A stretch of 64,000 nt of DNA from an uncultured bacterium. GTDB lineage: Bacteria > Abyssobacteria > SURF-5 > CBDUXP01. Position numbers and translations under genes: made by a program. The stretch spans positions 28,392 through 92,391 of the forward strand of contig CBDUXP010000007.1 in the NCBI GenBank assembly GCA_965371225.1, given 5' to 3'. Each line of letters begins with the position of its first letter. Position 1 is the stretch's first letter. Below, piece after piece: positions 3,212 through 43,498 of this stretch. The notes beneath the pieces were generated by a model that was not told the DNA's origin, ran no database searches, and was given only the letters and a program-made list of their open reading frames with translations.

Positions 3212-4456
3212 GTGACGCCATGTGAAACTGCTGTGATTCGCCGTATTCCACAGGCGGCTTGGTTGAGCGTTCTGCTCGCCATGGCGCCGATTCACCACCG
3301 GCCGGCCGGGGGGGAAGCCGCTGTCCCGCCCGCCCAGCCTGCCCCGCGTGCCGTGCCACCGGCCGTACGCGCGCAACTTCACGCGCCGGAACCCGCCGAG
3401 CGCATCCGGGCAGTACGCGGGTTGGCCCCCTACGGTCAAAATGCCGTCGAACCGCTGTTTGCCATGCTGACGGACCCCGAGCCCTCCGTCCGCTGGGCCG
3501 CGCTCGGCACCCTCAACAGCTTGCAACACGCCGACCTGGTCCCGCCCATCCTCGCCGCCCTCCCCAGCGCGGACGAGCGGATGCAGGTGCGCCTGTATTT
3601 CCTGCTCGCGCGGCATGCGGACCGCCGGACCTGGGACACGCTCGTGGCTGGCCTGGGACACACGGACAAGAACGTCCGGCAGGTCTGTGCGGACGGGCTG
3701 ACCCGCACCGCACAGCCCGGTGATGAAGCCGTGCTCGGGAAGGCGTTGGCGACGGCCTCCCCCGCCGTGGCGCTGGGGCTGGTCCAAGCCCTGGCACCGC
3801 TCGGTACGCCGGAGGCAGCCGCCGCCCTGGCGCCCCTGCTGCAGCACGAGGACGCCACGTACCGGCAGTACGGCGCGCAGGGGCTGGCCGAACTGGGCCG
3901 ACCGGAAGCGGTGGCGTACCTGACGCAGCATCTTCACGACTCGTCTGCCGAAGTGCGGTCGTGGGTGTACTACGGCATCAGCCAGCATGGCGACGGGAGC
4001 ACCTTCGACATCCTTCTGGCCGGCACCGCCGACCCGGATGCCTACATCCGCAAGGAAAGCGCTTGGGGCCTCGGTCGGCTCGCAGACGCGCGGGCCCTGT
4101 CCGCGCTGCAGGGCGCCCTGACAGACGAGGAACCTACGGTGCGCGGGAGCGCGGCCGAGGCGCTGGGGATGCTCAACCACCCGGCAGCACTGCCCGATCT
4201 GCAGCGTGCCGCCGCGGACCCCGACCCGACCGTCCGTTTGCTGGCCGCAGAATCCCTGCTCCGCCTGGGGGATGCGAGCGGGACTGCCGAACTGATCGAG
4301 AACCTGCGCCATGACAACCGGCACTTCCGCCGAGTCGCGTTACGCGGCCTGACGCTGTACAGCGGGCAAGCTTTCGGCGGCGATTACGACGCGTGGAAGG
4401 CGTGGTGGGCCGCGCAATCGGCCACCCCCGTCCCGCCGCCGGCAGGCCAGGAGTAG
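3212..4456 (+). CDS. HEAT-repeat (PBS-lyase-like) protein with an N-terminal signal-like segment
   Basis: Repeated ~30-aa units carry a D/E-P-x-x-x-V-R core (EPSVRWAALGTL, DKNVRQVCADGL, DAYIRKESAWGLGRL, EPTVRGSAAEALGML, DPTVRLLAAESLLRL). A hydrophobic N-terminus follows RRIPQAAWLSVLLAMAP. The stop lies 2 nt before the patatin start. Confidence 0.7.
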   Translation: MTPCETAVIRRIPQAAWLSVLLAMAPIHHRPAGGEAAVPPAQPAPRAVPPAVRAQLHAPEPAERIRAVRGLAPYGQNAVEPLFAMLTDPEPSVRWAALGTLNSLQHADLVPPILAALPSADERMQVRLYFLLARHADRRTWDTLVAGLGHTDKNVRQVCADGLTRTAQPGDEAVLGKALATASPAVALGLVQALAPLGTPEAAAALAPLLQHEDATYRQYGAQGLAELGRPEAVAYLTQHLHDSSAEVRSWVYYGISQHGDGSTFDILLAGTADPDAYIRKESAWGLGRLADARALSALQGALTDEEPTVRGSAAEALGMLNHPAALPDLQRAAADPDPTVRLLAAESLLRLGDASGTAELIENLRHDNRHFRRVALRGLTLYSGQAFGGDYDAWKAWWAAQSATPVPPPAGQE

Positions 4457-4458
4457 CG

Positions 4459-5943
4459 ATGGCGAAACGCACCCCGCTGCGCCCGCGGGTCTACATCGTC
4501 GGTGCCACGAAGCGACACGTTGGGGAGGTGCAGCGGATCTTCCGGGACCTCAAGCAGTCTCGCGGGCTGCATGTGGAAACGCAGACCTTCGTCGGATTCG
4601 ACCAACTCCGCCCGCACCTGGAACGCTACGTGAACCTCGTCGTGTTCAACTTCCGCGGCGTGGATCCGGCGCAATTCAAGGGGGCCTTGCGCGACCTCCG
4701 GACCGTGTACAGCGGCCGCATGGTCATCGTCAACGACGACCCCAGCGTCCACCCGTGCATCTGGGGGCGCTTCTACGGGATGAACTACCAGGTCGCGGAC
4801 CCGGCGGCCCTGAGCCCGTACATCGCCCGGACCCTGAGCCGGACGCCGCCGCGCGGGCGCACCGCGATCGTGTTCGCCGGCGGGGGCATTCTGGGCGGCT
4901 TCACCGAGGTGGGGGTCTACAACGCCCTCCACGACATGGGCCTGCGCGACTTCGACATGTACCTGGGCCTCAGCGCCGGCGCCCACGTGGCGGCCGTCGC
5001 CGCGCACCGGATTCCCCCCCGCACCATGATCGAACGGGGCGGGCTCGGGCTGCTGGATTTTTACAGCCCCAATGTGCGCGATGCCGTCAGCAAGAGTCTC
5101 TTCTTCCTGCCAAACCTCATTCAGGGCTCGCTGGAGTATCTTCGCAGTCCGTCCCCCGACCTCTTGTTTCTCCTCTCCAGTCTCTTTCCCAGTGCGGCGC
5201 TCACGGGCAAACGCATCTCACGGAGCCTCGAACGGGCAATCCGGCAAGCCGGGGGCACCAATAGCTTCAAGGACTTGCTCGACCGCGGCGTCGAACTGTA
5301 CGTGACCGCCATGGATCTGGACACCACGGAGCTGAGGGTGTTCGGGGCCGACGACGATGTCGACGTCCCGATTTCCCTGGCGGTCCGGGCGTCCGCCGCC
5401 CTGCCCCTGGCCTACCGCCCAGTGGAGATTGACGGCCGCCAGTACATCGACGGCGGCATCCACACCACCGCCCCGATCGACGTGGCCATCGACCACGGCG
5501 CCGACCTCATCATCTGCGTCAATCCGCTCGTGCCCTTCGTGGCCGACGAGCCGGGCACCATCCAGCGGCTCGGGGCCGTCGGGGTGGCCGAGCAGAGCTA
5601 CCGGACGGTGTTGCGCCAACGGTTGCAGAGCGACATTCAGTACTACCGGCTGGCGCATCCGCGGCGCCTCATCCTCTTGATCGAACCCGACCTGCGGAAC
5701 GCGGCGCTGTTCCACAATCCGCTCAACGCCAATCCGGACCTGATCGCCCGCGCGCTCGCGGAGGGTTACGATTCGGTCCGCCGCTATATGGAGCGGGACT
5801 GGGACTTCGTCGAACGCAGTTTCCTGTACCACGGCCGTCCCATTTCCCGCACGATCATGGAGCGCGTCAGCACCGCCCTGCGCCACTCGGAACTCTCGCA
5901 CGAAGCGCTGATGGACGTGTTCGCCGCGGAAGCCGAGGCCTAG
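4459..5943 (+). CDS. Patatin-like phospholipase with an N-terminal pseudo-receiver (CheY-fold-like, phospho-acceptor Asp absent) domain
   Basis: The three patatin motifs are intact: oxyanion loop FAGGGILGG, nucleophile elbow GLSAG, and the catalytic Asp in YIDGGI. The preceding ~140 aa have a receiver-like beta/alpha pattern (VYIVGA...NLVVFNFRG...RMVIVND) without the conserved acidic residues. The ATG at 4459 lies immediately after the HEAT gene stop. Confidence 0.8.
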   Translation: MAKRTPLRPRVYIVGATKRHVGEVQRIFRDLKQSRGLHVETQTFVGFDQLRPHLERYVNLVVFNFRGVDPAQFKGALRDLRTVYSGRMVIVNDDPSVHPCIWGRFYGMNYQVADPAALSPYIARTLSRTPPRGRTAIVFAGGGILGGFTEVGVYNALHDMGLRDFDMYLGLSAGAHVAAVAAHRIPPRTMIERGGLGLLDFYSPNVRDAVSKSLFFLPNLIQGSLEYLRSPSPDLLFLLSSLFPSAALTGKRISRSLERAIRQAGGTNSFKDLLDRGVELYVTAMDLDTTELRVFGADDDVDVPISLAVRASAALPLAYRPVEIDGRQYIDGGIHTTAPIDVAIDHGADLIICVNPLVPFVADEPGTIQRLGAVGVAEQSYRTVLRQRLQSDIQYYRLAHPRRLILLIEPDLRNAALFHNPLNANPDLIARALAEGYDSVRRYMERDWDFVERSFLYHGRPISRTIMERVSTALRHSELSHEALMDVFAAEAEA

Positions 5944-6804: not shown

Positions 6805-8568
6805 CTAGCCGCTGGGGCCTGGTGCGGCGGATGCCCGCCGGCCCGCGCGCACCGCCACGACCAAGCTGCACAGCAGCGCGCTCGCGGCGACGCCCATGAA
6901 TTGCAAGAGCCCCACGAGCAGGACCGCGACGGCCGGGTCGCGCTGATCCCAAGGGTGGGGGTCTAGCCCGAAGCCCACTAAAAAGACGGCAGCGCCCGCC
7001 GTCGCCACCGCGGCCAGGCCGCCCGCCACGCTGGCAACCACGCTGCCGAACTTCGGCGCCGCCGCGGTCTGGCGGCGCGCAAGCCAACGGGCCGTGAGGT
7101 AGGCCGCTATCAGCCCCAGCGCGCCCTCGCCGAATCGCGGGAGGGCGAACGGGGCAAGCCCCCGACGGCCCGGGCCGCTCAGGCTGTACCCGTTTCCCCC
7201 GGCCAGGAACAGCCCTACGGGCACAAGGACCCCGACCGCGATACCGGCGATCAGCCAAACGGGCGGGTTCTTCGCGGGGGGCGCGCCCGCGCGCGCGGCC
7301 CGCCGGCGCAGGAGCCCCGAGAGAACCATGGCCCCGAGTCCCAGGCCGGTCGCCGCATAGAGCCGCGGCCGTAAGAACCGCTGGGCGGCGAGGGCCAAGT
7401 GCTCGTGCCACCGAAAGCGCAACGCAGAGGCCAGGTTGGCCGCTTCCGACCACGCCAGCTTCCACTGCTGCGCGCCCAGCGCCGCATCCACCAGGTCGGT
7501 CCGCAAACCCCGCGGCATCGGCGCATCCAACTGCGGATCGGCCAGACCCAGCCGGTCGAGGCGGAAGCGATACGCTTGCAACCGTTGCGCCACCGTATCG
7601 CGCCCGCGGCGCGCGCGAACTTCCGGCGCACAGTCCAGCGCGTCATACAGGGGCCAGCCTTCGTTGTGGGTCGGGATGGGTGTCCCCAGCAGCCACGCCA
7701 CGGTCGAGGCGAGGTCCCCCTGCTCCGCCTGACCCGCGGTACCTGGCCGAATGCCCGCGCCCGCTAACACGCAGGGCACAGTCGCCACGACCGGTTCTCC
7801 GCCCATGTGCCCGCCGCGGTCCAGGTGCCCGTGATCGGCGGTGACTACGAGCGTCTCGCGCGTGAAGTCCAGCGCCCGAGCAATCTCCCCAATGCGTTCC
7901 CCCGTCCGCCGGGCCATCTCCAGATACTCGGGGGACGCACCACCCGCCACGTGGCCGGCGCGGTCCACGATGTCAAAGTGCACCCAGATCAGATTCGGTG
8001 CGTCCGGTTGGGCCAACACTTCGAGCAGGCGGGGCAGCAGGACGTCATCGTCCGCGTAGCCCGGCGCGCTCGGCAGCGAATTCGGCGCATCCAGAAACTG
8101 TTCGAGCGCGTACGGGGAGCGCCACGTCACGACGTTGCCCGTGCGCAACCCTGCCTGATGCGCCGCAGTGTAGATACTGCCGAACGTCCGGTAAAAGCCG
8201 GGGCCGACCGCGGCCGCTCCGGTGTTGTTGAGCATGCCGATGGTGAGTTGCGGCGCGCCGGTGGCAATCACATGCGAGAGCGGGATGGAGGCGGTGGGCG
8301 GCGCCACGCTCAGCGTCCAGTCGGCACCCTGCTCCCGGAGGGTATTGAGCGACGCCATCGCTCGCGACGCGTCCACGCGCAAGCCGTCCACCACGCACAG
8401 CACCACCCGCTCCGTCAGCGGCTCCCCCGCCGGACCCCACGGTAGCGGCTCAGCGAACGGCGTGCGGTACAGCGTCGCGCGGGCGTTCAGTTGCGTGAGC
8501 AGCCCCGCGCCGCACACTCCCAACGCCGCAACCAGGAACAGGAGTCGCGCAGGCGTAAATCGGAACAT
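6805..8568 (-). CDS. Alkaline-phosphatase-superfamily enzyme (nucleotide pyrophosphatase/phosphodiesterase-like) with a C-terminal multi-TM anchor
   Basis: Metal-ligand motifs of the AP/NPP fold (VVDGLRVD near the N-terminus, VTADHGH later). The C-terminal ~200 aa are strongly hydrophobic. Confidence 0.6.
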   Translation of the reverse strand: MFRFTPARLLFLVAALGVCGAGLLTQLNARATLYRTPFAEPLPWGPAGEPLTERVVLCVVDGLRVDASRAMASLNTLREQGADWTLSVAPPTASIPLSHVIATGAPQLTIGMLNNTGAAAVGPGFYRTFGSIYTAAHQAGLRTGNVVTWRSPYALEQFLDAPNSLPSAPGYADDDVLLPRLLEVLAQPDAPNLIWVHFDIVDRAGHVAGGASPEYLEMARRTGERIGEIARALDFTRETLVVTADHGHLDRGGHMGGEPVVATVPCVLAGAGIRPGTAGQAEQGDLASTVAWLLGTPIPTHNEGWPLYDALDCAPEVRARRGRDTVAQRLQAYRFRLDRLGLADPQLDAPMPRGLRTDLVDAALGAQQWKLAWSEAANLASALRFRWHEHLALAAQRFLRPRLYAATGLGLGAMVLSGLLRRRAARAGAPPAKNPPVWLIAGIAVGVLVPVGLFLAGGNGYSLSGPGRRGLAPFALPRFGEGALGLIAAYLTARWLARRQTAAAPKFGSVVASVAGGLAAVATAGAAVFLVGFGLDPHPWDQRDPAVAVLLVGLLQFMGVAASALLCSLVVAVRAGRRASAAPGPSG

Positions 8569-8626
8569 GGTCAGAGTGTACTAGCCGCGCGGTCAAGGGC
8601 CCCGGCGATGGCCGCCGTGCGACAGC

Positions 8627-10009
8627 CTACGGGACGAGCTGGTTCCCGTACAGACTCAACGAACCGTTCGACAGGCCGAGGACCACGTCGTTATCGGTAT
8701 CCGCATCGAAGTCGCCCGCGATAATCGCCGTGGGCGGCGCGGCGACCGCAAGCGTCGGCCCCGCCACGAACACCCCGGCGCCGTCATTCACGAAGAACCG
8801 CAACTCGTCCAGGGCCCCGGCCGTATCGCCAATCACCGCCAAGTCCTGCACCGCGGGCGCGGCATCGCTGAATGGCGTCGCAAGCAGGTCCTGCGGTTGC
8901 CCCGGCCCAAACCCGGTCGCCACCTGCGTGGCGGCGAGCAGAGTCCCAGGGGTAGCTGGATCGTTGATCCGGATTTCCAGGTTGCCGTCATCGCGCAGAA
9001 TCACGATATCGCTCAGGTTGTTGATGCCGTCGCCGTCAAAGTTGGCCACCGCGATGGACACTCCGGCCGATCCAATTGTGAACACTGAATCCGGCAGCGC
9101 CCCATTGGTCGTCAAGTTGGCATTCAGCCACACCTCGATCTGCCCCGCAGCCCCCGCATCGGTCAGCGCGATGACATCGACCAGGGCGTCCGCGTTGAAT
9201 ATGCCGAGGGCAACATCGATCACGTTGCCAGTCGCGGCCAGGCTGGCCGTCTCGGCCAAGAGACCCGCGCCGTTATTCAGCGAAACGGTCACACTGGTTC
9301 CGGTCTCGTCCGCGGTCACGAGGTCGACCAAGCCGACGTTCATGCCGTCTACATCAGCCAATATGACGCGCCGGGGTTGCCCGCCGCCTAAGGCATAGGT
9401 ACGGACACCCCCAATGCCGGAGAACTCCCCGATGTCACCCCCGGAATTATCCGAATCGTTCAAGACCGCTTCCAAGTGCGGTCCCGCCCCGGTCACCCCA
9501 TCCGCGACGACTAAATCCAGCAGGGCATCGCCGTCGATCTCTCCAATCGCAACGCCGCCTGGCAGCTTTGCGGTCGCGGCGATATTAGCGACGTTTCCAG
9601 GTTGCGCCAGCGTGCTCGCGTAGGGCCCCGCCGTGACCGCAGGATTCATGAAGGGGAAGGCGCCCGGCAAGGCCGTGACGTCAAACAACTGCGTCAGCAC
9701 CGGGGTCGCGGTGTTGGTGATTGCAACGAAGTCCACGGACGCCCCGGCTCCGGGATCGAGAATGCCCGCGGCCAACGTTCGAATCGTCGCGGCGCCGGCA
9801 ACCGCCTGGTTCGTGTCGAAAAGGAATGCAATGATGCTGGCCGCCGGGGGCGGGACTCCGCCGCCTCCCCCACCGCCGCCGCCGATGCCGCCGATGGGGC
9901 TGTTCCCACTGTTCCCGCCCCCCACGTCACAGGCGGCAAGCGCGAGGCACAGGGCAAGCGGGAGCGCGCGACGCGTACCCCGGCGCGTCCAGGCGTGTAA
10001 AACTGTCAT
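8627..10009 (-). CDS. FG-GAP/VCBS-repeat lipoprotein
   Basis: Lipobox LALCLALAAC, a Gly/Pro linker, and repeated GDxDGDGxxDLV-type FG-GAP units (GEIDGDALLDLVVADG, ADVDGMNVGLVDLV, ANFDGDGINNLSDIVIL, GDFDADTDNDVVLG). The start was set at the internal ATG preceding the signal peptide. Confidence 0.65.
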   Translation of the reverse strand: MTVLHAWTRRGTRRALPLALCLALAACDVGGGNSGNSPIGGIGGGGGGGGGVPPPAASIIAFLFDTNQAVAGAATIRTLAAGILDPGAGASVDFVAITNTATPVLTQLFDVTALPGAFPFMNPAVTAGPYASTLAQPGNVANIAATAKLPGGVAIGEIDGDALLDLVVADGVTGAGPHLEAVLNDSDNSGGDIGEFSGIGGVRTYALGGGQPRRVILADVDGMNVGLVDLVTADETGTSVTVSLNNGAGLLAETASLAATGNVIDVALGIFNADALVDVIALTDAGAAGQIEVWLNANLTTNGALPDSVFTIGSAGVSIAVANFDGDGINNLSDIVILRDDGNLEIRINDPATPGTLLAATQVATGFGPGQPQDLLATPFSDAAPAVQDLAVIGDTAGALDELRFFVNDGAGVFVAGPTLAVAAPPTAIIAGDFDADTDNDVVLGLSNGSLSLYGNQLVP

Positions 10010-10164: not shown

Positions 10165-11703
10165 CTATAGCGGGGGCGCCCGGCGGACCAGCTCGTAGGC
10201 CAGGCGGTCGCGCGTAGCACGCAGGGGCTTGGCGCTGTGGGGCTCCGGATCGTGGCCCAGCAGGGCGAAGGCCAGGGGGGCCCGGCCGGGCGCGCGCACG
10301 TAGCCGGCCAAGGCGAGGACCCCATCCAGGGACCCACTTTTGCCGCGCAGTTCCCCATGGCGAATGGACTTGGCCAGATCGGTCATGTTCGGGTCGACTC
10401 CCACATGCACCAGGGACCGCTCGAACAACGCGCCGTGCTCGTGGTAGGCCATGGCCATGAGGAGGCGCACGAGCGCCGAGGCGGTGGCGCGGTTCTCCCG
10501 CCCGAGGCCCGACCCGTCCACCAGCCGAAAGGTCCCCGGCTCAACCCCCAGCTCACAAACTGCCTCGTCGATGACGCGGAGCCCCTCGGCCCAGGAGCCG
10601 TCCGTCCCCACCGCCCGACCCAGCGTCTTGCACAGGAGTTCGGCATGAAGATTCTGGCTGCGGCTGTTGATGACCCGGACCATCTCGAACAAGGGTTGGG
10701 AGACGTGGCGCGCAATCTGCCGGGTGTACGGGAGGGCCGGCCCGTTGGCGCGAGTCACGATTTCCGGTGCACCCGCAACGGCGACGCCGGCGCGTTCTAA
10801 CGCATCACGAAACACCCATGCGGCGAACAGGGCGGGCCGTTCGAGCGCCACGGGCAGGGGTTCAATCCGCGCGCGCTGCCCGATCGTGCCGCCAATGGTG
10901 ATGAAGTTCGAGCCCGGCGCGCGCCAGGCAAAGAGTTTGCGCCGGCGCCCCGGGCCCGTCTTCGCCTGCAGCCGCACGCGGACGTACCGGGTCATGGGTT
11001 CCCACCGGAGCGCCGCGCGCGCGCCGACCACCGCGCCCGGCCCGATGTACACATCGACGCAGTTGTCGTTGAACGACAGCGCGCTGACCCGCGCGGCGTA
11101 CCAGCGGTGTTGGTCTTCCATCTTCCAGGGGCCGAAGTCCAGGTCCTCGAAATGGGTGCCGTCGCCATAGACGGCGCCCGTCACCCGCTCGATTCCCGCA
11201 GCGCGCACCTGCTGCGCCAGCGTGTCCAACACTGCGGTGATGCGGTCTTTATAAAAGCGCCCAGAGAGGTTCGGATCCCCCCGGCCGTAGAGCACCAAGT
11301 CGCCTTGCAGTTCCCCGTCGACGATTGGGCCCTGTGCGTACACGGACGTGGTCATCGTGTAGGTCGGTCCCAGCCGGTGCAGGGCCGCGGCCGTCGTGAA
11401 CAGCTTGACGTTCGACGCCGGCATCCGGGACTCGTCCGCGCGGTGGGCGTACAGCGTCTCCCCCGTGTCCAGCCGGTCCACCCGCACCGCCCAGGTGCGG
11501 CCGGCCGCCTCGGCCTCCCGTACGGCCTCGCCCAGCACGGACGCCAAGTCCGCTGGGGCGGCCCAAGCGCCCGTCGCGCCCAGACACACCCACGCCGCCA
11601 CAAGGGCGCGGAAGACCACGCCGACGTTCACTGCGAACGACGACGGGCGCGCGCACGCCGCGCGGTCACCCGAGCCAGCCGATGGGCGAAGCGCGCTTCC
11701 CAC
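10165..11703 (-). CDS. dacB: D-alanyl-D-alanine carboxypeptidase/endopeptidase (PBP4, peptidase S13)
   Basis: PBP4-family similarity throughout (MPASNVKLFTTAAAL, LYGRGDPNLS, the SxxK/SxN context) plus an N-terminal signal peptide. The start may instead be a GTG about 70 nt downstream of 11703. Confidence 0.8.
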   Translation of the reverse strand: MGSALRPSAGSGDRAACARPSSFAVNVGVVFRALVAAWVCLGATGAWAAPADLASVLGEAVREAEAAGRTWAVRVDRLDTGETLYAHRADESRMPASNVKLFTTAAALHRLGPTYTMTTSVYAQGPIVDGELQGDLVLYGRGDPNLSGRFYKDRITAVLDTLAQQVRAAGIERVTGAVYGDGTHFEDLDFGPWKMEDQHRWYAARVSALSFNDNCVDVYIGPGAVVGARAALRWEPMTRYVRVRLQAKTGPGRRRKLFAWRAPGSNFITIGGTIGQRARIEPLPVALERPALFAAWVFRDALERAGVAVAGAPEIVTRANGPALPYTRQIARHVSQPLFEMVRVINSRSQNLHAELLCKTLGRAVGTDGSWAEGLRVIDEAVCELGVEPGTFRLVDGSGLGRENRATASALVRLLMAMAYHEHGALFERSLVHVGVDPNMTDLAKSIRHGELRGKSGSLDGVLALAGYVRAPGRAPLAFALLGHDPEPHSAKPLRATRDRLAYELVRRAPPL

Positions 11704-12866
11704 TCCGCCAGCTTGGCCGGCGCGCCACTAGTGAAGGTACCGGTGCGCTCCAGCCGGTCGAGGGCGCGCCGGCACCAGCCCTCGGCCGCCGCAAAGTCCT
11801 TTCGCCGGTGCTCGTACAGTTTGGCCAGTTCCTCCAAGGCGCTGAAGGCGAGCGACCACTCGGCCGAGAGGAGCTGCTGCCAGAGCTGCTCGGCGGCGGG
11901 CCAGTCCGCCCGGCGTTTCGCGAGCCGGGCCAACCGCCACCGCGCGTCTTCGGCCGTTTCGGCCACGGGCGACTCGGCGGCGCGCGCGTAGCACGCGGCA
12001 GCCTGCGCCCGGGCGTCCGCCTGGTCCGCCGCCTCCAACGTGCGGCCGACGTGCACCAGGTCCTCCAGTTCGACCGCCGGTGCGTGCAAGGGATCCCGGC
12101 CGACGGCGCTGACGCAAACCGCCAGGGCCGCCAGAGACAAGATGTCGGTCGCGTTGTGTTCGAGAATGGGGTCGAGCAAGGCGGCATTCTGCTCGCGCAG
12201 GGCACGGAAATACTGGCCGGGGATCTGCGCCCCGGGAAGATCATCCTGTCTCCCGAGGCCAAACAGGTGCCGCTCGACCGTGCCCAGGCTGGCGTCGCGC
12301 AGACGCGGCCGCCACACGCGCCGCACCGTATGCAACAGGTCCACGTGCGGCGTCGCCTCCAGCGGCCAGTGGCGCCGGTGCATGACGAACCGATCGCGCA
12401 ACAGCGGAACATCGAAGCTCTTGCCGTTGTACGTGACCAACACGGTGCACTGTTGCAGCCGCGCATCCACCGCGGCGAGCATCGCGGGCTCTTCGGGGTA
12501 GTCGCGCATGACATACTGCCGGACCACGAAGTGGTCTCCTTCAAACGCGCCGAGGCCAATCAAAAACGCCACGGTCCCGGCGCCGCCGTTCAGGCCGGTG
12601 GTTTCCGTGTCGAGGAAGACCCACCCGTCGACCGGATACCGCGCGAGTCCCGCGGTCTTCGCCAGAGAGCCGAGCGCGCGGGCATCCACGCGGTTGGGAT
12701 CCAACACCACATCGCCATGCACCTGATCCGCGGCGCAGTGCACCTCGCGGAGGTCGAATGCCGTAACGGTACCCGTCGCGCGCCGGTGCGGCGCCACCGG
12801 ACGCGGACGATCCGGCAGCGCACGGCCCTGGGGATCCAGGTGCCGCAGCCGCTCGCGCAGGCTCAT
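11628..12866 (-). CDS. mrfB: DEDD-type (RNase H-like) 3'-5' exonuclease, YprB/MrfB-like
   Basis: Exo I motif FLDTETTGL, with Exo II/III-like context following (YNGKSFDVPLL, HNATD). The ATG at 12866 overlaps the upstream helicase stop in an ATGA arrangement. The longer 518-aa ORF N-terminus lies antisense inside the helicase gene and is not believed. Confidence 0.7.
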   Translation of the reverse strand: MSLRERLRHLDPQGRALPDRPRPVAPHRRATGTVTAFDLREVHCAADQVHGDVVLDPNRVDARALGSLAKTAGLARYPVDGWVFLDTETTGLNGGAGTVAFLIGLGAFEGDHFVVRQYVMRDYPEEPAMLAAVDARLQQCTVLVTYNGKSFDVPLLRDRFVMHRRHWPLEATPHVDLLHTVRRVWRPRLRDASLGTVERHLFGLGRQDDLPGAQIPGQYFRALREQNAALLDPILEHNATDILSLAALAVCVSAVGRDPLHAPAVELEDLVHVGRTLEAADQADARAQAAACYARAAESPVAETAEDARWRLARLAKRRADWPAAEQLWQQLLSAEWSLAFSALEELAKLYEHRRKDFAAAEGWCRRALDRLERTGTFTSGAPAKLAEWEARFAHRLARVTARRARARRRSQ

Positions 12867-15178
12867 GCCGGGACGGGCGCGGCAGGGCGGGCGGGCGCGC
12901 GGGCGGCGCCACAGTCCGCGAGCACCAGATCGAGCAAGCGAAGGGCGGCGGCCTTGCCCTCCTCCCCCACCTCGAGCGGCGGGCCGACACACGAGGGACA
13001 TCCGCACTCGCACGCACAGCCCGCAATCAACTCGCGCGCCCCGGCGAAGACCATCTCCTGCAAGCGGAAGAGTTTGTCGCTGTAGCCCACGCCGCCGGGA
13101 TAGTTGTCGTACACGTAGACCGTGGCGCGCTCGCTGAACGGCGCACGCACCATCGGCACGGCGCGCACGTCGCGGGGATCGCACATGAGGTAAATCGAGG
13201 CCACTTGCCCGAGCACGTGGGCGACGGCTTGCAGCGCCCCGCCGATGATTTGCGGCCCGACGCCGATGTCTTCGAGCGCCTCCGGCGTAAAGTCGCGCCA
13301 GAACGCCGTCGTGTGCAGGTGCGATTCCGGCAGGTAGATGCGGCCGACCCCCAGGTTCTCGTGCGTGCGGAACTTTACTTTCTTGTACGCGACCGGGAGG
13401 GTGGACACCGCGACTTCGCCGCAGCCGACGCTGCCGCGCGGGGCCGGCGCGTCCTGGAACACCGCGAGCACCTTGATCGCCGTTTTCGATTCCGCGTCCG
13501 TGTAGTAGTCCACCTCCACGGGTTTCACATACGCCTTCTTGTCGTCGTAGTCGAGGCGCTCGACGGAGTAGGTGGCGCCTTCGTGAATGTAGATCGCCCC
13601 TTCGTACACCTCGAGCGTAGCGGCCACGTAATCCACTTCGCCGATGACGCGGTCACCGTTCTGGCAGTCGACGATCACCACGTTCTCCGGCGACGCGCTG
13701 CGCAGGCTCACGTCTTCCGCGGGATACGCGTCGGCCGCCCAATACCACCGGCCCTCCACGTGCCGCACCAGCTCCAACTCCTCCAGGTACGCGAGCATCT
13801 CGCCCATCTCGTCGACGCCGAAGCGCTCCCCGTCCTCGAAGGGCAGCTCGAACAGGGCGCACTTGAGGTGGCCCAGCAAGAGGATGAGGTTGTTCGGATC
13901 CACCACGCCGTGTTCCGGCGGCTGATCGAAGAAGTAGTCCGGATGGTGCATCAGGAACTGGTCCACCGGCGCGCTCGAGCCCACGAGAATCGCGGCGCTC
14001 ACGCTGCTGCGCCGCCCCGCCCGGCCCGCCTGCTGCCAGGTGCTCGCAATGCTGCCGGGATAACCCGCCATCAGACAGGCGTCCAGCGCGCCGATGTCGA
14101 TGCCCAACTCCAAGGCGTTCGTACTGACCACGCACCGGATGCTCCCATCCCGCAGCCCCGCTTCGATCGCCCGCCGCTCGTTGGGAAGGTACCCGCCGCG
14201 GTAGCCCGTGATCCGCCCGGCTTTCTGCCGCCGGGAGCGGGCCTGCTCCTTCAGGTACGTGGTCAACAGTTCCACCCGCAGCCGGCTCCGCCCGAAGACG
14301 ATCAGCTGCGTGCCCTTGTCCATCAGGCGGCTGGCCAGCCGCTGCGTCTCATTAATGACCGAGCGGCGAATGCCCAGCGCCGCGTCCACCACGGGGGGGT
14401 TGTACAGGATGATGTGTTTTTCGCCGCGCGGCGCTCCGTTGTCGTCGATGAGTTCGACGTCCTCCCCGAGCAGTTTCGTGGCGAGTTCGCGCGGATTCGC
14501 AATCGTGGCGCTGCAGCAGATGAACTGCGGCTGCGTGCCGTAGAACGCGCACAGGCGCCGCAGGCGGCGCACGAGATTGGCGAAGTGGGAGCCGAACACC
14601 CCGCGGTACTGGTGCACTTCGTCGATCACGACGTAGCGGAGGTTCTCGAACAACTGTGTCCACTTCGTGTGGTGCGGCAGGATGCCGGTGTGCAGCATGT
14701 CCGGGTTCGTGAGCACGATGTGCCCCGAGCGGCGAATGGCCCGGCGCGCGTCGGCCGGCGTGTCCCCGTCGAACGTGTGCACGCGCAACGGCGTGGGCAA
14801 ACGGTCGCGCAGGCCGCGCAAGGTGTTCAGCTGATCGTTGGCCAGGGCCTTGGTCGGGAAGACGTACAACGCGCGCGCGGCCGGGTCCCGGAGCACCCGC
14901 TGCAACACCGGCAGGTTGTAGCACAAGGTTTTCCCAGACGCGGTGGGCGTCACGATGACCACGTGCCGGCCGCGGCCGACGGCGTCCCACGCGGCAAGCT
15001 GGTGGCTGTACAGAGAGCGGATCCCGTCAGCGGCCAGGGCCGCCTGCAAGCGGGGATCGAGCGTGGGCGGGAAGGGCGCGGTGACCGCCGCGCGCGCCGG
15101 TATGGTGCGCCAGGCCGCCACATTGGCCTGCACCCGCGGATCCGCACGCAACTGGTCGAGGGCTTGGGCGAGGTTCAT
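12863..15178 (-). CDS. mrfA: DEAD/DEAH-box superfamily-2 helicase with a C-terminal DUF1998 zinc-finger domain, YprA/MrfA-like
   Basis: Walker A TPTASGKT, DEVH box (VVIDEVH) and motif VI QQAGRAGRR. The C-terminal 4-Cys cluster CACECGCPSC is typical of DUF1998. Confidence 0.8.
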   Translation of the reverse strand: MNLAQALDQLRADPRVQANVAAWRTIPARAAVTAPFPPTLDPRLQAALAADGIRSLYSHQLAAWDAVGRGRHVVIVTPTASGKTLCYNLPVLQRVLRDPAARALYVFPTKALANDQLNTLRGLRDRLPTPLRVHTFDGDTPADARRAIRRSGHIVLTNPDMLHTGILPHHTKWTQLFENLRYVVIDEVHQYRGVFGSHFANLVRRLRRLCAFYGTQPQFICCSATIANPRELATKLLGEDVELIDDNGAPRGEKHIILYNPPVVDAALGIRRSVINETQRLASRLMDKGTQLIVFGRSRLRVELLTTYLKEQARSRRQKAGRITGYRGGYLPNERRAIEAGLRDGSIRCVVSTNALELGIDIGALDACLMAGYPGSIASTWQQAGRAGRRSSVSAAILVGSSAPVDQFLMHHPDYFFDQPPEHGVVDPNNLILLLGHLKCALFELPFEDGERFGVDEMGEMLAYLEELELVRHVEGRWYWAADAYPAEDVSLRSASPENVVIVDCQNGDRVIGEVDYVAATLEVYEGAIYIHEGATYSVERLDYDDKKAYVKPVEVDYYTDAESKTAIKVLAVFQDAPAPRGSVGCGEVAVSTLPVAYKKVKFRTHENLGVGRIYLPESHLHTTAFWRDFTPEALEDIGVGPQIIGGALQAVAHVLGQVASIYLMCDPRDVRAVPMVRAPFSERATVYVYDNYPGGVGYSDKLFRLQEMVFAGARELIAGCACECGCPSCVGPPLEVGEEGKAAALRLLDLVLADCGAARAPARPAAPVPA

Positions 15179-15352
15179 GCCTGTGGGGACCGCCGCGAGG
15201 GACGCGCCGCCGCCTCGCCAGGCCGAATGGCCGAGTATAGCGAAGACAAACCGAAACTACAAGACACACCCACAGTGCAGAATGTCGGGGCGCCCTGCCC
15301 CCGCCCCGCTAGATATAGGGGAGTGCTGCACCGCGGTCGGCACCCGGCCGAT

Positions 15353-15380
15353 TTGCATCTGCCCCCGAGTCCGGTATCAT
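15353..15380 (+). promoter_or_regulatory. Putative sigma70-like promoter (TTGCAT, 16-nt spacer, TATCAT) giving a leaderless transcript for the TPR lipoprotein
   Basis: Hexamers read from the sequence. The -10 ends about 8 nt before the ATG at 15389, so transcription would start at or next to the start codon. Confidence 0.35.
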
Positions 15381-15388
15381 GCCTGTGT

Positions 15389-17017
15389 ATGCGCGCCTGG
15401 CGGGGAGACCTGCGCACTTACATTCTCGTGTGCTGTGCGGCCGGAGTGCTGCCGCTGTTGGGCTGCAATTCGACACCGAAGGCTGGGTTCAGCCTGGCCA
15501 ACCTGCCCGCGGCGGGGATGCATGAGGAGCCCCTGCCCAGTATCGCCGAGGCTCGGGCGGCGCCGCGCGTGCTGGTGCTGCCGCTGGCGGACCGGGCCGC
15601 GCCCAATCGCATCGGGCGGATGCACAATGCGATCGACGATCTCATTCGGCGCGACCTGATGCTGCTGCCGGAACTCTCGGTGTTTCCGGATAACGCGGTC
15701 CCGATCCCCCTGGCCTCCCTCTATGCCGAAGAGTACCGCGCGCTGGACACCGCGCTCTGGGCGGGGGAACGGGCGGGGGCCACCCACGTGCTCATCGGCG
15801 AGATCGCCGCGCGTGGGGAGCAGATCGTCGTGGAAATTGATCTGATCGACATGCAAGCCCGCGAGATCACGAACTCGGTCCGCGTGCAGGCGGGCCCCAG
15901 GCGCATCGACAAGGAACTGCCGCGCTTGCGGCGGACGGTGATGGAGTTTTTCCGGGACGATTCTGCCCCCCTGAAGAAGACGGTGCCGGGCTTCACGCCC
16001 CCCCACGCCGTGCTCGAGGATTGCGGCTACGGCCAGAACCGCCTCGCCAACGGGGAGTACAGCCAAGCCCTCATCGACTTCTACGCGGCGGCGAAGCACA
16101 AGCGGCCGTACGCGGGCGCGTACGTGGGGATCGCGGAGACGCAACTCCTCCTGGGCGGGTTAGACCTGTCGGATCGCGCGTTCGGGGTCGCGCTCGAGCG
16201 GGATCCGGACTACGTGGAGGTGTACTGGCGGTACGCGGTCATGCGCATCCGCGTGCGCGGCGGCGGCCCCGAAGCGCTGGCGCTGTGTCAGCGGGCGTCA
16301 TTGCGCGCGCCCCTGTTCGGTCCCGCACACTTGACGCTGGGGACCCTGTGGTTTGCGGAGAAGCAGTACGAGCACGCCGACCGGCACTTCGAACTCGCCG
16401 CCACCCTGCTGCCGAACTCCCTGTGGCCCATCTACAATCACGCGCACGTGCGGCGGGTCCAGGGGGACCTGGCGGGCGCGCGCGCCGCCCTGGAACGCGC
16501 CCTGGATCTCGGCCCCCGGCAGCCGCGAATCCATTTCGACCTCGGTCAGCTCCTCCAAGAGCAAGGCGACGACAAGGGCGCGCTGGAACGGTTCAAGAGC
16601 GCCGTCAACTACGACCCGCAGAATCCGCTGTTCCGCTACCACACGGCCGTCCTCTTCGAACGCCTGGGCCAGGCGGACGAGGCGTTGGCGGCGTACCAGG
16701 CGGCGATGGCGATCCCCTTTCGCCACGAGTGGCTCCACCGGAAGCTCGCCGAAGCGTTTCTGCGCCTGAAGCGCCTGCAGGAGGCCGAGCGCACGCTGGC
16801 GGCCGGGTACGCGGACGGCATTCGTGATCCCGAGCATGTGCTCCTGTACGCGAGCGTGCTCCTGCAGCGCGGGCAGAAAAACCACTTGCGACGGCGGGAT
16901 TATTCGACGCGGGCCGGCAACCTGCTCCTCCCGCTACGGGACATGGAGATGACGGCTACGCAGCAGGCGCGGGCGGAGGAATTGGCGGAAGCCGCCGTCC
17001 GCATGGGGACGCGCTAG
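15389..17017 (+). CDS. TPR-repeat lipoprotein
   Basis: Lipobox VLPLLGC, then multiple TPR-like helical repeats. The upstream 728 codons of the 1270-aa track ORF are antisense to mrfA and were rejected. Confidence 0.65.
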   Translation: MRAWRGDLRTYILVCCAAGVLPLLGCNSTPKAGFSLANLPAAGMHEEPLPSIAEARAAPRVLVLPLADRAAPNRIGRMHNAIDDLIRRDLMLLPELSVFPDNAVPIPLASLYAEEYRALDTALWAGERAGATHVLIGEIAARGEQIVVEIDLIDMQAREITNSVRVQAGPRRIDKELPRLRRTVMEFFRDDSAPLKKTVPGFTPPHAVLEDCGYGQNRLANGEYSQALIDFYAAAKHKRPYAGAYVGIAETQLLLGGLDLSDRAFGVALERDPDYVEVYWRYAVMRIRVRGGGPEALALCQRASLRAPLFGPAHLTLGTLWFAEKQYEHADRHFELAATLLPNSLWPIYNHAHVRRVQGDLAGARAALERALDLGPRQPRIHFDLGQLLQEQGDDKGALERFKSAVNYDPQNPLFRYHTAVLFERLGQADEALAAYQAAMAIPFRHEWLHRKLAEAFLRLKRLQEAERTLAAGYADGIRDPEHVLLYASVLLQRGQKNHLRRRDYSTRAGNLLLPLRDMEMTATQQARAEELAEAAVRMGTR

Positions 17018-18150
17018 CGTCGGCCCGAGCGCCGGCCGGCGTCGCCGGCCAGGAGCTGCTCCGCCAGCGCGACGAAGTTCCCCGGCTCATTCGAAGAGCG
17101 CATAGCCAAGTCACGGTCGATGAGACCTGCCACGTACAGTTGCGCCAGGTGTTGTTCGAGCGTAATCATCCCTTCGCCCGACGCCACTTCCATGGCCGTA
17201 TACACCTGATGCACTTTCGAGTCGCGAATGAGCGACTGAATCCCAGTATTCATAATCATGATCTCGCGAACGGCGATGCGCCCCTGATCCTGGTCCGCCC
17301 GCGGAAGCAGAATCTGGGCTAACACGGCGCGCAGCGTGGAGGAGAGCTGCTGCCGGACCTGTTCCTGATGATCCCCGGGGAACACATCGATCACGCGGTT
17401 GATCGTGTCCACGGCGCCGTTGGTGTGCAGCGTCGCGAACACCAAATGCCCCGTTTCCGCAATGGTCAGTGCCGCAGTGATCGTCTCCAAGTCGCGAATC
17501 TCCCCGATCAGCACCACGTCCGGATCCTGCCGCAGGACCCGGCGCAGCCCCTCCGTGAACGACTCGGTATGCGTGCCGATCTCCCGTTGATTGATCATCG
17601 CACGTTTGTCCTCAAAGCTGAACTCGATGGGATCTTCGAGGGTGACGATGTGGCATCGCCGCGTCCGGTTGATGTGCTCCAACATGGCCGCGAGGGTCGT
17701 GGACTTGCCGGAGCCGGTCGGGCCGCACACCAGCACGAGCCCATTGCGAATCTCGGTCAGCCCCGCCACTATCTGCGGCAATCCCAGGTCGGCCATGCTG
17801 GGAATGCGCGTGGGCACCGGCCGCAGGGCCGCCGTCACGCCATGATCGTTGCGCGAGACGTTCACCCGAAAGCGCCCAAGACTCGGGACCGCATACGTGA
17901 AGTCGAGTTCGTTGTGCTGCTCGAAGTACGACCGATGGTGGTCGGACAGGAAGCTGTAGATCAACTTGGTGCAGGCCTTTTCATCCAGCTTCGGGAGTTG
18001 CTTGTGGGCACGCAACTCGCCATCCAGCCGAAAGAGCGGCGAGCGATCCGGGGTGAGATGGATGTCCGACGCGCCGGCCCGCTTCGAGGCGCGCAAGACG
18101 GTGGCAATGTCCAGATCCTCTTGCTCGATGGGGTCCCGGCGCTCGTTCAT
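17014..18150 (-). CDS. pilT: Type IV pilus retraction ATPase PilT
   Basis: Walker A GPTGSGKSTTLAAM, an Asp box and His box (TLEDPIEF...GEIRD...ATLHTN). The N-terminal domain is typical of PilT/PilU. Confidence 0.85.
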   Translation of the reverse strand: MNERRDPIEQEDLDIATVLRASKRAGASDIHLTPDRSPLFRLDGELRAHKQLPKLDEKACTKLIYSFLSDHHRSYFEQHNELDFTYAVPSLGRFRVNVSRNDHGVTAALRPVPTRIPSMADLGLPQIVAGLTEIRNGLVLVCGPTGSGKSTTLAAMLEHINRTRRCHIVTLEDPIEFSFEDKRAMINQREIGTHTESFTEGLRRVLRQDPDVVLIGEIRDLETITAALTIAETGHLVFATLHTNGAVDTINRVIDVFPGDHQEQVRQQLSSTLRAVLAQILLPRADQDQGRIAVREIMIMNTGIQSLIRDSKVHQVYTAMEVASGEGMITLEQHLAQLYVAGLIDRDLAMRSSNEPGNFVALAEQLLAGDAGRRSGRR

Positions 18151-41518: not shown

Positions 41519-41947
41519 GTGCCCGCCGCAACGTTCGAGCGGATCGACCACACGGCCGACGTCGGCTTGCGTCTCCTGGCCCCCACCGAAGCCGACCTGT
41601 TCGTCACGGCGGTCGCGGGCCTGCACGCACTCTGGGGGCTTCCCGCGCCCGAGCCGCCGGCGGGCGCGCCGACGGAGCCACTGGAAGTGCATGGGGCGGA
41701 CATCGAAAGCCTCCTGGTCGCCTGGCTGAACGAATTGATCTTTCAAGCGACGGCGGCGGGGCGAGTGGCCGCGAGCGTGCAGGAGCCCTGCCTGGCGGAC
41801 GGCCGGTTCCGGGCGGAGGTGGCCTGGCAGCCCGTACAGTGGGACACCTCGGTGGACGGGGCGGACATCAAGGCGGCCACCTACCACACCGTACACGTGA
41901 CCGAAACGGCGGAAGGCTTCACCACGACGATCATCTTCGACGTGTGA
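41519..41947 (+). CDS. Archease (RtcB activator)
   Basis: N-terminal FERIDHTADVG motif and an archease-length protein immediately upstream of rtcB. Confidence 0.8.
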   Translation: MPAATFERIDHTADVGLRLLAPTEADLFVTAVAGLHALWGLPAPEPPAGAPTEPLEVHGADIESLLVAWLNELIFQATAAGRVAASVQEPCLADGRFRAEVAWQPVQWDTSVDGADIKAATYHTVHVTETAEGFTTTIIFDV

Positions 41948-41963
41948 GCCGGCCAGGCGGGCA

Positions 41964-43496
41964 ATGCTGATGGGCTGGTTGAAGCGGAAAAAGCCAAAGA
42001 AGCGGCGCGACGCGATCGTGGCGCGCACCCTCGACGTCGACGGCGACGCGTCGGCCCTGACGTACAACCGCGTCTCGGACGTGCTCTGGGAGATCCCCCG
42101 CACCGGGAACATGCGCGTGCCCGCGCGGATCTACGCGACCCGGGCTGGCCTGGAACGCATCAAACAGGACAAAGCCCCGCTCCAGGCCGTGAATGTGGCG
42201 CACCTGCCCGGCATCGTGAAGTATTCCCTCGCCATGCCGGACATCCATTGGGGCTACGGGTTTCCCATCGGTGGCGTGGCCGCAACCGACCCGGCCGAGG
42301 GGGGCGTTATCTCGCCCGGCGGCGTCGGCTATGACATCAATTGCGGGTGCCGCCTGGTGACCACCGGCCTAACGCGGGAGGAGGTGCAGCCCAAGATGGC
42401 GGCGCTCGTGAATCGCTTGTTCGAACAGATTCCCACGGGGGTCGGCGCAAACCACGCCATCGATAAGCTCTCGGTCGCGCAGCTGCGCAAGCTCATCGTC
42501 GATGGGGCGGAGTACGCGACCGCCCAGGGGTATGGCGACGCCGCCGAGCTGGACCACATCGAAGGAGGCGGTAAGTTCGAGGGTGCCGATCCGAAAGCGC
42601 CCTCGACCAAAGCGTTTCAGCGGGGGATCAATTCCGTCGGCACCCTCGGCTCCGGGAATCATTTCCTCGAAGTGGGGTACGTGGACGAACTGTACGATAC
42701 CGCCACCGCCGCGGCATTCGGCCTTGTCGAAGGCATGGTGACGGTCCTCATCCACACCGGCTCGCGCGGCTTCGGCCATCAGGTGTGCGTCGATCATTTG
42801 GAGCAGATGTCGCATGCCGGCCGCAAATACGATCTGCACCTGCCCGACCGGCAGTTGGCAGCCGCCCCTATCGAATCACCAGAGGGGGAACAGTACCTGA
42901 CCGCTATGGGGTGCGCGGCGAATTACGCGTGGGTGAACCGGCAAGTCATCCAGCAGTTGGCCCGCGACGCGTTCATGCACGTGTTCGATATATCGCCGAC
43001 AGACTTGGCGTGGCGGCTGTTGTACGATGTCTGCCATAACATCGCCAAGATGGAGACCCATACCGTGGACGGTGAGGCGCGTCGGCTGTGCGTCCATCGC
43101 AAGGGGGCGACTCGCGCGTTCCCTTCGGGGCATCCGGACCTCCCGCCGGCGTTCCGGACGACCGGCCAACCCGTACTCATCCCAGGGGACATGGGGCGAG
43201 GCTCCTTCGTGTGCGTCGGTCTCCCGGGAGCCATGGAGGAAACGTTCGGCAGCACGTGCCACGGCGCGGGGCGCGCTATGAGCCGCCGCCAGGCATTGAA
43301 GCGCGCAAAAGGGCGCTCGATCGTGGACGAACTTCGACAGCAGGGCATTATCGTGAAAGCGAAAAGTCACGCCACCATCGGGGAAGAAATGCCCGAGGCA
43401 TACAAGGACGCCACCGACGTGGTGAGGGTTGTGGACCGTGCCGGCATCAGTCGGACCGTGGCCAAGCTCCGCCCGCTGGGCGTCATTAAGGGATAA
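41964..43496 (+). CDS. rtcB: RNA-splicing ligase RtcB (3'-phosphate/5'-hydroxyl RNA ligase)
   Basis: Full-length RtcB with metal/GTP-binding histidines (DIHWGYGFPIGG, GYDINCGCRL, GSGNHFLEV, HTGSRGFGHQV, the nucleophile His in STCHGAGR). Confidence 0.9.
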   Translation: MLMGWLKRKKPKKRRDAIVARTLDVDGDASALTYNRVSDVLWEIPRTGNMRVPARIYATRAGLERIKQDKAPLQAVNVAHLPGIVKYSLAMPDIHWGYGFPIGGVAATDPAEGGVISPGGVGYDINCGCRLVTTGLTREEVQPKMAALVNRLFEQIPTGVGANHAIDKLSVAQLRKLIVDGAEYATAQGYGDAAELDHIEGGGKFEGADPKAPSTKAFQRGINSVGTLGSGNHFLEVGYVDELYDTATAAAFGLVEGMVTVLIHTGSRGFGHQVCVDHLEQMSHAGRKYDLHLPDRQLAAAPIESPEGEQYLTAMGCAANYAWVNRQVIQQLARDAFMHVFDISPTDLAWRLLYDVCHNIAKMETHTVDGEARRLCVHRKGATRAFPSGHPDLPPAFRTTGQPVLIPGDMGRGSFVCVGLPGAMEETFGSTCHGAGRAMSRRQALKRAKGRSIVDELRQQGIIVKAKSHATIGEEMPEAYKDATDVVRVVDRAGISRTVAKLRPLGVIKG

Positions 43497-43498
43497 GC

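Follow-up and report, generated by a model that had tools for sequence, protein, structure and literature searches.

In Bacillus subtilis the helicase MrfA (YprA) and the exonuclease MrfB (YprB) interact and make up an excision pathway that is independent of UvrABC and specific for mitomycin C (10.1101/426304; PMC7797055; PMC11194089). The pathway takes no part in the repair of interstrand crosslinks; mono-adducts of mitomycin C, and possibly intrastrand crosslinks, are the lesions assigned to it (10.1101/426304). MrfA requires K82, D185/E186, S222 and its zinc cysteines in vivo, mutation of a motif abolishing function (10.1101/426304), and four closely spaced zinc-coordinating cysteines are a criterion for the family (10.1101/426304; PMC7797055). 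MrfB homologues are recognized by a DEDDh pentad (10.1101/426304), which in the B. subtilis protein consists of D107, E109, D172, H258 and D262 (PMC11194089). MrfA-type helicases form a widespread family (Roske et al., PMC7797055); MrfA and MrfB together have been reported in five phyla by the same homologue criteria as were tested here (Burby & Simmons, 10.1101/426304), and within the YprA family Bell et al. (10.1101/2025.09.15.676423) set a distinct MrfAB/YprAB repair branch apart from the DISARM, Dpd and Druantia helicases. Here we describe a helicase-exonuclease gene pair in a 64,000-nucleotide stretch of contig CBDUXP010000007.1, from an uncultured bacterium; the whole of this stretch is called the window. 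The initial annotation had taken the pair to be of the YprA/YprB (MrfA/MrfB) type, and the pair passed all of the sequence and structure tests that were run. We put at roughly 80% the probability that the two genes form a chromosomal operon, mrfA-mrfB, that is orthologous to B. subtilis yprA-yprB and acts as a repair module. The identity and the biochemical type of both proteins, as given below, are very likely correct.

Both genes lie on the minus strand and, as in B. subtilis, mrfB follows directly downstream of mrfA. The mrfA orthologue (12863..15178; ATG at 15178, TGA at 12865-12863) encodes a 771-aa superfamily 2 (SF2) DExH DNA helicase, and the mrfB orthologue (11628..12866; ATG at 12866, TGA at 11630-11628) encodes a 412-aa DEDDh 3'-5' exonuclease. 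The junction sequence, ccggcATGAgc, was read directly and holds a true 4-nt start/stop overlap (12863..12866, minus), in which the mrfB ATG at 12866-12864 lies over the mrfA TGA at 12865-12863. The two minus-strand open reading frames (ORFs) thus sit exactly at the bounds claimed for them at the outset, and the ATGA overlap claimed with them is real. The initial annotation had also made its reading depend on the exonuclease being in frame; the ORF is in frame and gives 412 aa, and neither the helicase nor the exonuclease ORF contains a frameshift or an internal stop. A mechanical ORF for the exonuclease reaches further upstream, to a GTG at 13184 (listed as 13184..11628). The ATG at 12866 is nevertheless favoured as the mrfB start, because an identical 412-aa exonuclease is present in a public collection (P0001, identity and coverage 100%), because the alignments of exonuclease homologues begin at residue 1, and because independent gene calls in the closest relative (loci L081 and L082) also give a 4-nt overlap (7680..10004 and 10001..11236 in L081).

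High-GC genomes yield many long spurious ORFs, and the pair might be an artefact of this kind, or a decayed locus made up of pseudogenes. A 1270-aa ORF on the plus strand (13205..17017) that overlaps the helicase gene is a typical high-GC artefact; it was rejected as a gene, being the antisense shadow of mrfA over 13205-15178 fused in frame to a gene for a tetratricopeptide repeat (TPR) lipoprotein. The proteins of the pair are both full-length relative to the characterised proteins, match them with very low E-values and have all of their catalytic residues intact, which refutes such an origin for them. The GC content at the three codon positions (0.69/0.46/0.89 in the helicase gene and 0.76/0.51/0.84 in the exonuclease gene, in a window of 67% GC) is typical of genuine genes, and both genes are kept in relatives. 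We consider an artefact or a decayed locus exceedingly improbable.

The helicase has the composition of B. subtilis MrfA. Pfam models matched its DEAD (3.2e-34, 118.5 bits) and Helicase_C (1.6e-15, 57.7 bits) regions and an Hrq1-type winged helix (WHD_HRQ1, 4.1e-09, residues 426-495). The C-terminal domain formerly called DUF1998 is now MZB, the MrfA Zn-binding domain (PF09369). The initial annotation had named a search with its hidden Markov model (HMM) as a check, and lack of the DUF1998 fold as a refutation; the search gave a clear match (4.6e-20; 72.5 bits, the cutoff being 24.2) at residues 653-731 (12986..13222, minus), which takes in profile positions 2-80 of 80. Among all PDB sequences the top match by phmmer was crystallised B. 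subtilis YprA/MrfA (6ZNP, 6ZNQ and 6ZNS; E 4.5e-253). The alignment to 6znp is a single one, of residues 6-751 to chain positions 7-749, with gaps of just 1-2 residues, and from it the two proteins are 50.5% identical over 740 aligned positions. The seven regions NTR-RecA1-RecA2-WH-OB-CON-MZB (WH, winged helix) are collinear in the two proteins.

The residues on which MrfA depends are also in place. K83 in motif I (GKT), D186-E187-V-H189 in motif II (DExH) and S223 in motif III (SAT) correspond to B. subtilis K82, D185/E186 and S222, respectively. The zinc cluster CACECGCPSC occupies residues 721-730 (12989-13018, minus), and C721, C723, C727 and C730 align to the four zinc-binding cysteines of the B. 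subtilis protein (chain positions 720, 722, 726 and 729). K83, D186, E187, S223 and the four zinc cysteines are invariant in an alignment of 45 homologues. Relative to B. subtilis MrfA, the helicase adds a fifth cysteine to the cluster, C725 (C721-x-C723-x-C725-x-C727-x-x-C730), where B. subtilis has Asp, and a C-terminal tail of 20 low-complexity Ala/Pro residues. C725 is not conserved among the helicase homologues.

An AlphaFold2 (AF2) model of the helicase had a mean predicted local distance difference test score (pLDDT) of 75 and a predicted template modelling score (pTM) of 0.69, with the lowest confidence in the linkers. By far its best fold match in the PDB, found with Foldseek, was DNA-bound MrfA (6znp_A; E 1.6e-82, template modelling (TM) scores 0.80/0.82, 763 columns). 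The C-terminal DUF1998 Cys4 domain of the initial annotation is therefore present in the full profile, in its four cysteines and in the fold. The next fold family, Lhr, reached a TM score of only 0.49. Lhr and Lhr-core (5V9X, 7LHL) are likewise SF2 3'-5' DNA repair helicases and have a similar RecA1 (E ~1e-29 over residues 60-313), but the likeness is confined to the helicase core, and their C-terminal domains are different and include no MZB. By its likeness to the B. subtilis protein, the helicase would have 3'-5' activity and a role against mitomycin C.

Two other families share more of this architecture. SftH of M. smegmatis, a monomeric 3'-5' DNA helicase (10.1101/2025.09.15.676423; 10.1101/426304), belongs to the same DUF1998 helicase family, as do the proteins of the NCBIfam model TIGR03817 ('helicase/secretion neighborhood putative DEAH-box helicase'), an actinobacterial equivalog of SftH type. 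The model aligned to the window helicase over positions 5-740 of 742 (E 1.1e-215), but the score of 718.2 bits lies below the curated cutoff of 874.1, and the helicase is a relative rather than a member of that group; in contrast to SftH, it has no type VII secretion genes nearby and is paired with an MrfB exonuclease. Hrq1 of S. cerevisiae, which is RecQ4-like, has the DEAD/Helicase_C core, the WHD_HRQ1 domain and a DUF1998-type C-terminus. It has been described as having the same domain structure as MrfA, at 32% identity (Burby & Simmons, 10.1101/426304), and work tying eukaryotic MrfA homologues to mitomycin C protection is cited by Bell et al. (10.1101/2025.09.15.676423). Hrq1 differs in being eukaryotic, in lacking an MrfB-type partner gene and in being much more distant in sequence.

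The partner protein is a DEDDh exonuclease. The search with a YprB/RNase-H-like HMM that had been proposed matched RNase_H_2 (PF13482) at 1.6e-37, with 129.4 bits against a cutoff of 22, and the sole sequence match in the PDB was the crystallised MrfB core (8UN9; phmmer E 6.7e-33), to which the exonuclease core is 38.6% identical over 184 residues. The motif FLDTETTGL, which had been noted at the start, is the ExoI motif at residues 84-92 (12591..12617, minus); it contains the catalytic D86 and E88, and its L92 corresponds to B. subtilis L113. The DEDDh pentad is complete, D86, E88, D152, H237 and D241 corresponding to D107, E109, D172, H258 and D262 of B. subtilis MrfB, and all five residues are invariant in an alignment of 69 homologues. 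The AF2 model built from this alignment (pLDDT 92.1, pTM 0.87) places a short helix and a disordered linker at residues ~1-36, the core at ~80-257 and a TPR-like helical repeat at 267-411. The last comprises seven helices (267-279, 283-296, 302-318, 322-334, 337-354, 358-376 and 383-411), that is three helix pairs and a long cap, with pLDDT mostly above 90 and the lowest 10-residue blocks at 87-89. B. subtilis MrfB likewise has a disordered N-terminus and a TPR domain of three repeats with a capping helix (PMC11194089). In a Foldseek search 8un9_A was the first match of the model (E 3.2e-08), and exonuclease domains from family-B polymerases and from TREX1 came next.

At the N-terminus of the exonuclease a short helix at residues 3-10 (MSLRERLRHL) precedes the disordered linker, which runs through residue 36, and the majority consensus xxxLxxxLRxL is common to the 69 homologues. 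A published AlphaFold-Multimer analysis suggested that the MrfB N-terminus docks on the WH domain of MrfA (PMC11194089). As far as its sequence goes, the conserved N-terminus would be compatible with such docking.

The layout of the pair bears on its expression. The ATGA overlap implies a single mrfA-mrfB transcript and, probably, translational coupling. No Shine-Dalgarno sequence is evident before the mrfB ATG, and the overlap therefore plausibly couples translation of the two genes. The intergenic region upstream of mrfA (210 nt) was aligned with that of L081. Within it a block of about 30 nt, TTGTAGTTTCGnTnTGTCTTCGCTATACT, is nearly invariant between the two, whereas the flanking intergenic sequence has diverged. 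The block contains a promoter-like element (15234..15262, minus) with a -35 hexamer TTGTAG at 15262-15257, a 17-nt spacer and a -10 hexamer TATACT at 15239-15234, which ends 56 nt upstream of the mrfA ATG. From its sequence and position this element may be the mrfA promoter, with a predicted transcription start near 15227. A consensus promoter scan of the minus strand called no promoter for mrfA; the element was missed because its -35 matches at only 3/6 positions. The consensus scan also returned a terminator-like site at 12584..12565, which was disregarded as implausible since it is intragenic, inside mrfB.

Context was annotated with Pfam from ~10 kb downstream to ~18 kb upstream of the pair and for ten more distant ORFs. 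Downstream lie genes for an S13/PBP4-type D,D-carboxypeptidase, an FG-GAP protein and a phosphodiesterase. Upstream are PilT, an acyl-CoA dehydrogenase, an EEP-family phosphatase, an S58 peptidase, SfsA, a Na/Pi transporter, GreA and an RND efflux pump with its membrane-fusion protein, and LpxC, GGT, RtcB and an HDAC-type deacetylase are found further on in the window. The presence of LpxC and of the RND pump with a membrane-fusion protein indicates a host that is a lipopolysaccharide-producing diderm, in agreement with the initial annotation; in this, in its high GC content and in belonging to a poorly sampled lineage the host differs from B. subtilis. The annotated neighbours are housekeeping genes and include no defence genes or integrases, and no tRNA, rRNA or other Rfam match was found in the window. 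In the closest relative, an ENA metagenome contig of 76.8 kb, MrfA, MrfB and PilT are 86%, 70% and 82% identical to their counterparts in the window, and the genes from the EEP phosphatase to the FG-GAP protein follow one another in the same order. The pair therefore belongs to the core chromosome rather than to a mobile island, as its housekeeping context and a gene order kept at 70-86% protein identity indicate.

These neighbours also bear on the suggestion, made initially, of a defence-like module, in which a YprA-family helicase and a nuclease would degrade invading DNA in the manner of DISARM, Druantia or Dpd. The helicases of those systems (DrmA/DrmB, DruE and DpdJ/DpdF, respectively) share with MrfA an SF2 core and an ancestral canopy made up of OB, CON and DUF1998 (10.1101/2025.09.15.676423), and the PADLOC models BrxHI, SngC, DruE and DrmA match the window helicase at E 1e-22 to 2e-49. 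The matches, however, cover no more than the generic RecA1/RecA2 core (BrxHI, for instance, a model of 698 positions, matches residues 40-397 with its positions 8-349), and none spans the MZB. Helicases of the defence clades have BrxA-like inserts and additional zinc-binding ones (10.1101/2025.09.15.676423), whereas the window helicase, compared with B. subtilis MrfA, has no insertions. Its partner is a DEDDh exonuclease, and within ~10 kb there is no PLD nuclease or other endonuclease, no methyltransferase and no companion of the DrmB/DruH type. Membership of a defence system would show as a full-length match to its model together with companion genes (DrmB/C, DruA-D/H, the Dpd cluster, or a methyltransferase or PLD nuclease), and the locus has neither. 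The published YprA phylogeny places MrfAB on a repair branch and the defence helicases on a separate one (10.1101/2025.09.15.676423). With the neighbours being housekeeping genes in an order kept in the relative, the proposal of a defence-like module was not borne out, and we regard an anti-phage function as very unlikely.

MrfB homologues are numerous. An exhaustive HMMER search returned 2574 clusters at 50% identity with E≤1e-30, and 5256 with E≤1e-10. Scanning one genome per GTDB species gave at least 370 confirmed MrfB-homologue loci; no MrfB match above 46% identity was among the matches listed. The best 80 of these loci were combined with L081 and L082 into a set of 82. Represented among the best 80 are Atribacterota, KSB1, Acidobacteriota, Chloroflexota, Methylomirabilota, Binatia, Gemmatimonadota, Sumerlaeia, Syntrophales, a gammaproteobacterial symbiont and many Clostridia. 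MrfA lies directly upstream of the MrfB homologue in 31 of the 82 loci, from many phyla (L081, L082 and 29 others). A possible mrfB start giving a -4 overlap is present in 10 of these 31, and in 24 of the 31 the nearest possible start lies at -23 to +13 nt of the mrfA stop; both counts are upper bounds, because the choice of start favoured the candidate nearest to the stop. Related proteins have gone into public collections with no name beyond 'DEAD/DEAH box helicase' and 'ribonuclease H-like domain-containing protein', and JGI labels such exonucleases 'uncharacterized protein YprB with RNaseH-like and TPR domain'. The initial annotation had called the system known but sparsely characterised outside Firmicutes. 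That it is known holds; its occurrence outside Firmicutes is already documented in the literature. The architecture, the partner gene and the breadth of distribution of the pair are all known already, and the pair is a routine orthologue. Since MrfAB is broadly distributed and has been described, there is nothing out of the ordinary in the feature.

By analogy with B. subtilis, the pair would work as follows. mrfA and mrfB would be transcribed from the conserved promoter-like element upstream of mrfA, and the ATGA overlap would couple their translation, favouring stoichiometric amounts of MrfA and MrfB. MrfA is predicted to be an ATP-driven 3'-to-5' single-stranded DNA translocase and helicase, whose WH-OB-CON-MZB 'canopy' would clamp the loading strand, and MrfB a DEDDh 3'-to-5' DNA exonuclease that depends on Mg2+/Mn2+ and ends in a TPR tail; together they would form a complex. 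MrfA may then load on single-stranded DNA and unwind the damaged stretch from a nick, while MrfB, bound to MrfA, would degrade the displaced lesion-bearing strand 3'-to-5'. The expected outcome is UvrABC-independent excision of bulky guanine adducts, that is, mono-adducts of the mitomycin C type and possibly intrastrand crosslinks. The initial annotation had spoken of nucleotide-excision-independent crosslink repair. Independence of UvrABC agrees with the B. subtilis model; 'crosslink' was an overstatement, as no role in interstrand-crosslink repair is found there (10.1101/426304).

Several points weigh against this reading of the pair as an MrfAB repair module. With respect to the proteins, no Pfam TPR model matched the C-terminal repeat of the exonuclease at E≤0.01, so that in this region, as in its 38.6% identity in the core, it stands apart from B. 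subtilis MrfB. Various Pfam TPR models match from 1 to 23 of the 69 aligned homologues, that is up to about a third. Because the exonuclease has no such match, its TPR assignment rests on the AF2 model and on homology. With respect to the partnership, of the 80 GTDB loci, 42 have an MrfB homologue with 2.5 kb or more of sequence upstream and yet no adjacent MrfA, and the association of the two proteins is therefore not obligatorily operonic. With respect to the pathway, the incision step is unknown even in B. subtilis, and the MrfA and MrfB homologues of P. aeruginosa failed to complement B. subtilis mutants (Burby & Simmons, 10.1101/426304). [quoted passage not shown] Lesion specificity is accordingly the weak step of the argument, given the P. 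aeruginosa result and this proposal.

The last two points favour the possibility that the same enzymes do another job in the window host, acting on other bulky or natural-product adducts, on stalled forks or on recombination intermediates (as for Hrq1/RecQ4-type proteins) rather than on mitomycin C-type lesions. The frequent separation of MrfB homologues from MrfA and the WHD_HRQ1 domain, which the helicase has in common with the eukaryotic RecQ-like Hrq1, point the same way. Set against this are the 50.5% identity to B. subtilis MrfA with collinear DNA-contacting domains, a modest divergence for proteins from different phyla, the tight operon coupling that has been kept, and the absence, outside the closest relative, of any alternative partner genes that stay with the pair. 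Another job for the same enzymes is thus unlikely. Also quite unlikely, in our estimate, is a variant in which MrfAB has been retargeted to a lesion other than that of mitomycin C or is under dedicated regulation through the conserved ~30-nt block, possibly with co-expression of the PBP4-type gene; nothing indicates it positively beyond two related genomes. The mrfA-mrfB repair operon remains the preferred reading.

At the lone-MrfB loci no MrfA helicase was seen within ~6 kb. They are found notably in Bryobacteraceae/Solibacteraceae, Christensenellales-type Clostridia and Chloroflexia, and include L003, L006, L007, L010, L013, L015, L019-L022, L024, L025, L027 and L029. An alternative helicase partner at these lone YprB genes was considered and rejected, the neighbours being unrelated housekeeping genes (ABC-F, DnaJ/PilZ, YebC, VanY and biotin carboxylase).

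The genes that flank the pair have features of their own. The gene abutting mrfB (10165-11631, minus) encodes an S13/PBP4-type D-Ala-D-Ala carboxypeptidase (Peptidase_S13, 1e-79, Pfam). A GTG at 11631-11629 is a candidate start for it and overlaps the mrfB TGA (GTGA); a signal-peptide-like N-terminus follows, and 12 nt further on there is another candidate GTG. On the other side, the real neighbour upstream of mrfA is the divergent TPR lipoprotein gene (15389..17017, plus), which encodes 542 aa with the lipobox LLGC. A sigma-70-like promoter match at 15352-15389 (plus; TTTGCA, 17 nt, TATCAT) ends 9 nt before the ATG at 15389, and its -10 region is conserved in L081. The sequence suggests that the transcript of this gene may be leaderless or nearly so. 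A functional tie of the pair to the S13 peptidase (PBP4/DacB-like) or to the TPR lipoprotein was rejected, as the adjacency occurs only in L081 and L082 and is absent from the other 80 loci; the carboxypeptidase gene probably stands beside mrfB through synteny particular to the lineage or through co-transcription, rather than through a functional link.

The PilT gene (17014-18150, minus) was informative about the host. Beyond the relative at 82%, its matches were ~50% identical and came from Polyangia, Gemmatimonadota, Hydrogenedentes and Rokubacteria. PilT is usually well conserved, and one relative at 82% with the next matches at ~50% from mixed phyla indicates that the source lineage is poorly sampled. 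Elsewhere in the window, an ORF for a patatin-like phospholipase comes directly after the RtcB RNA ligase gene (8.7e-168), and the two ORFs, which span 41901-44983 (plus), overlap by a few bases when taken from stop to stop; a second patatin-like gene lies at 4315-5943 (plus).

The names MrfA and MrfB can be given with confidence to the two proteins of the pair, which has little import beyond correct annotation. The locus raises no new question. It is one more diderm example of a repair system on which experiments have been done in B. subtilis only, and, as a tightly coupled and fully intact pair, it is a reasonable candidate for testing the conservation of MrfAB function across phyla by complementation or biochemistry.

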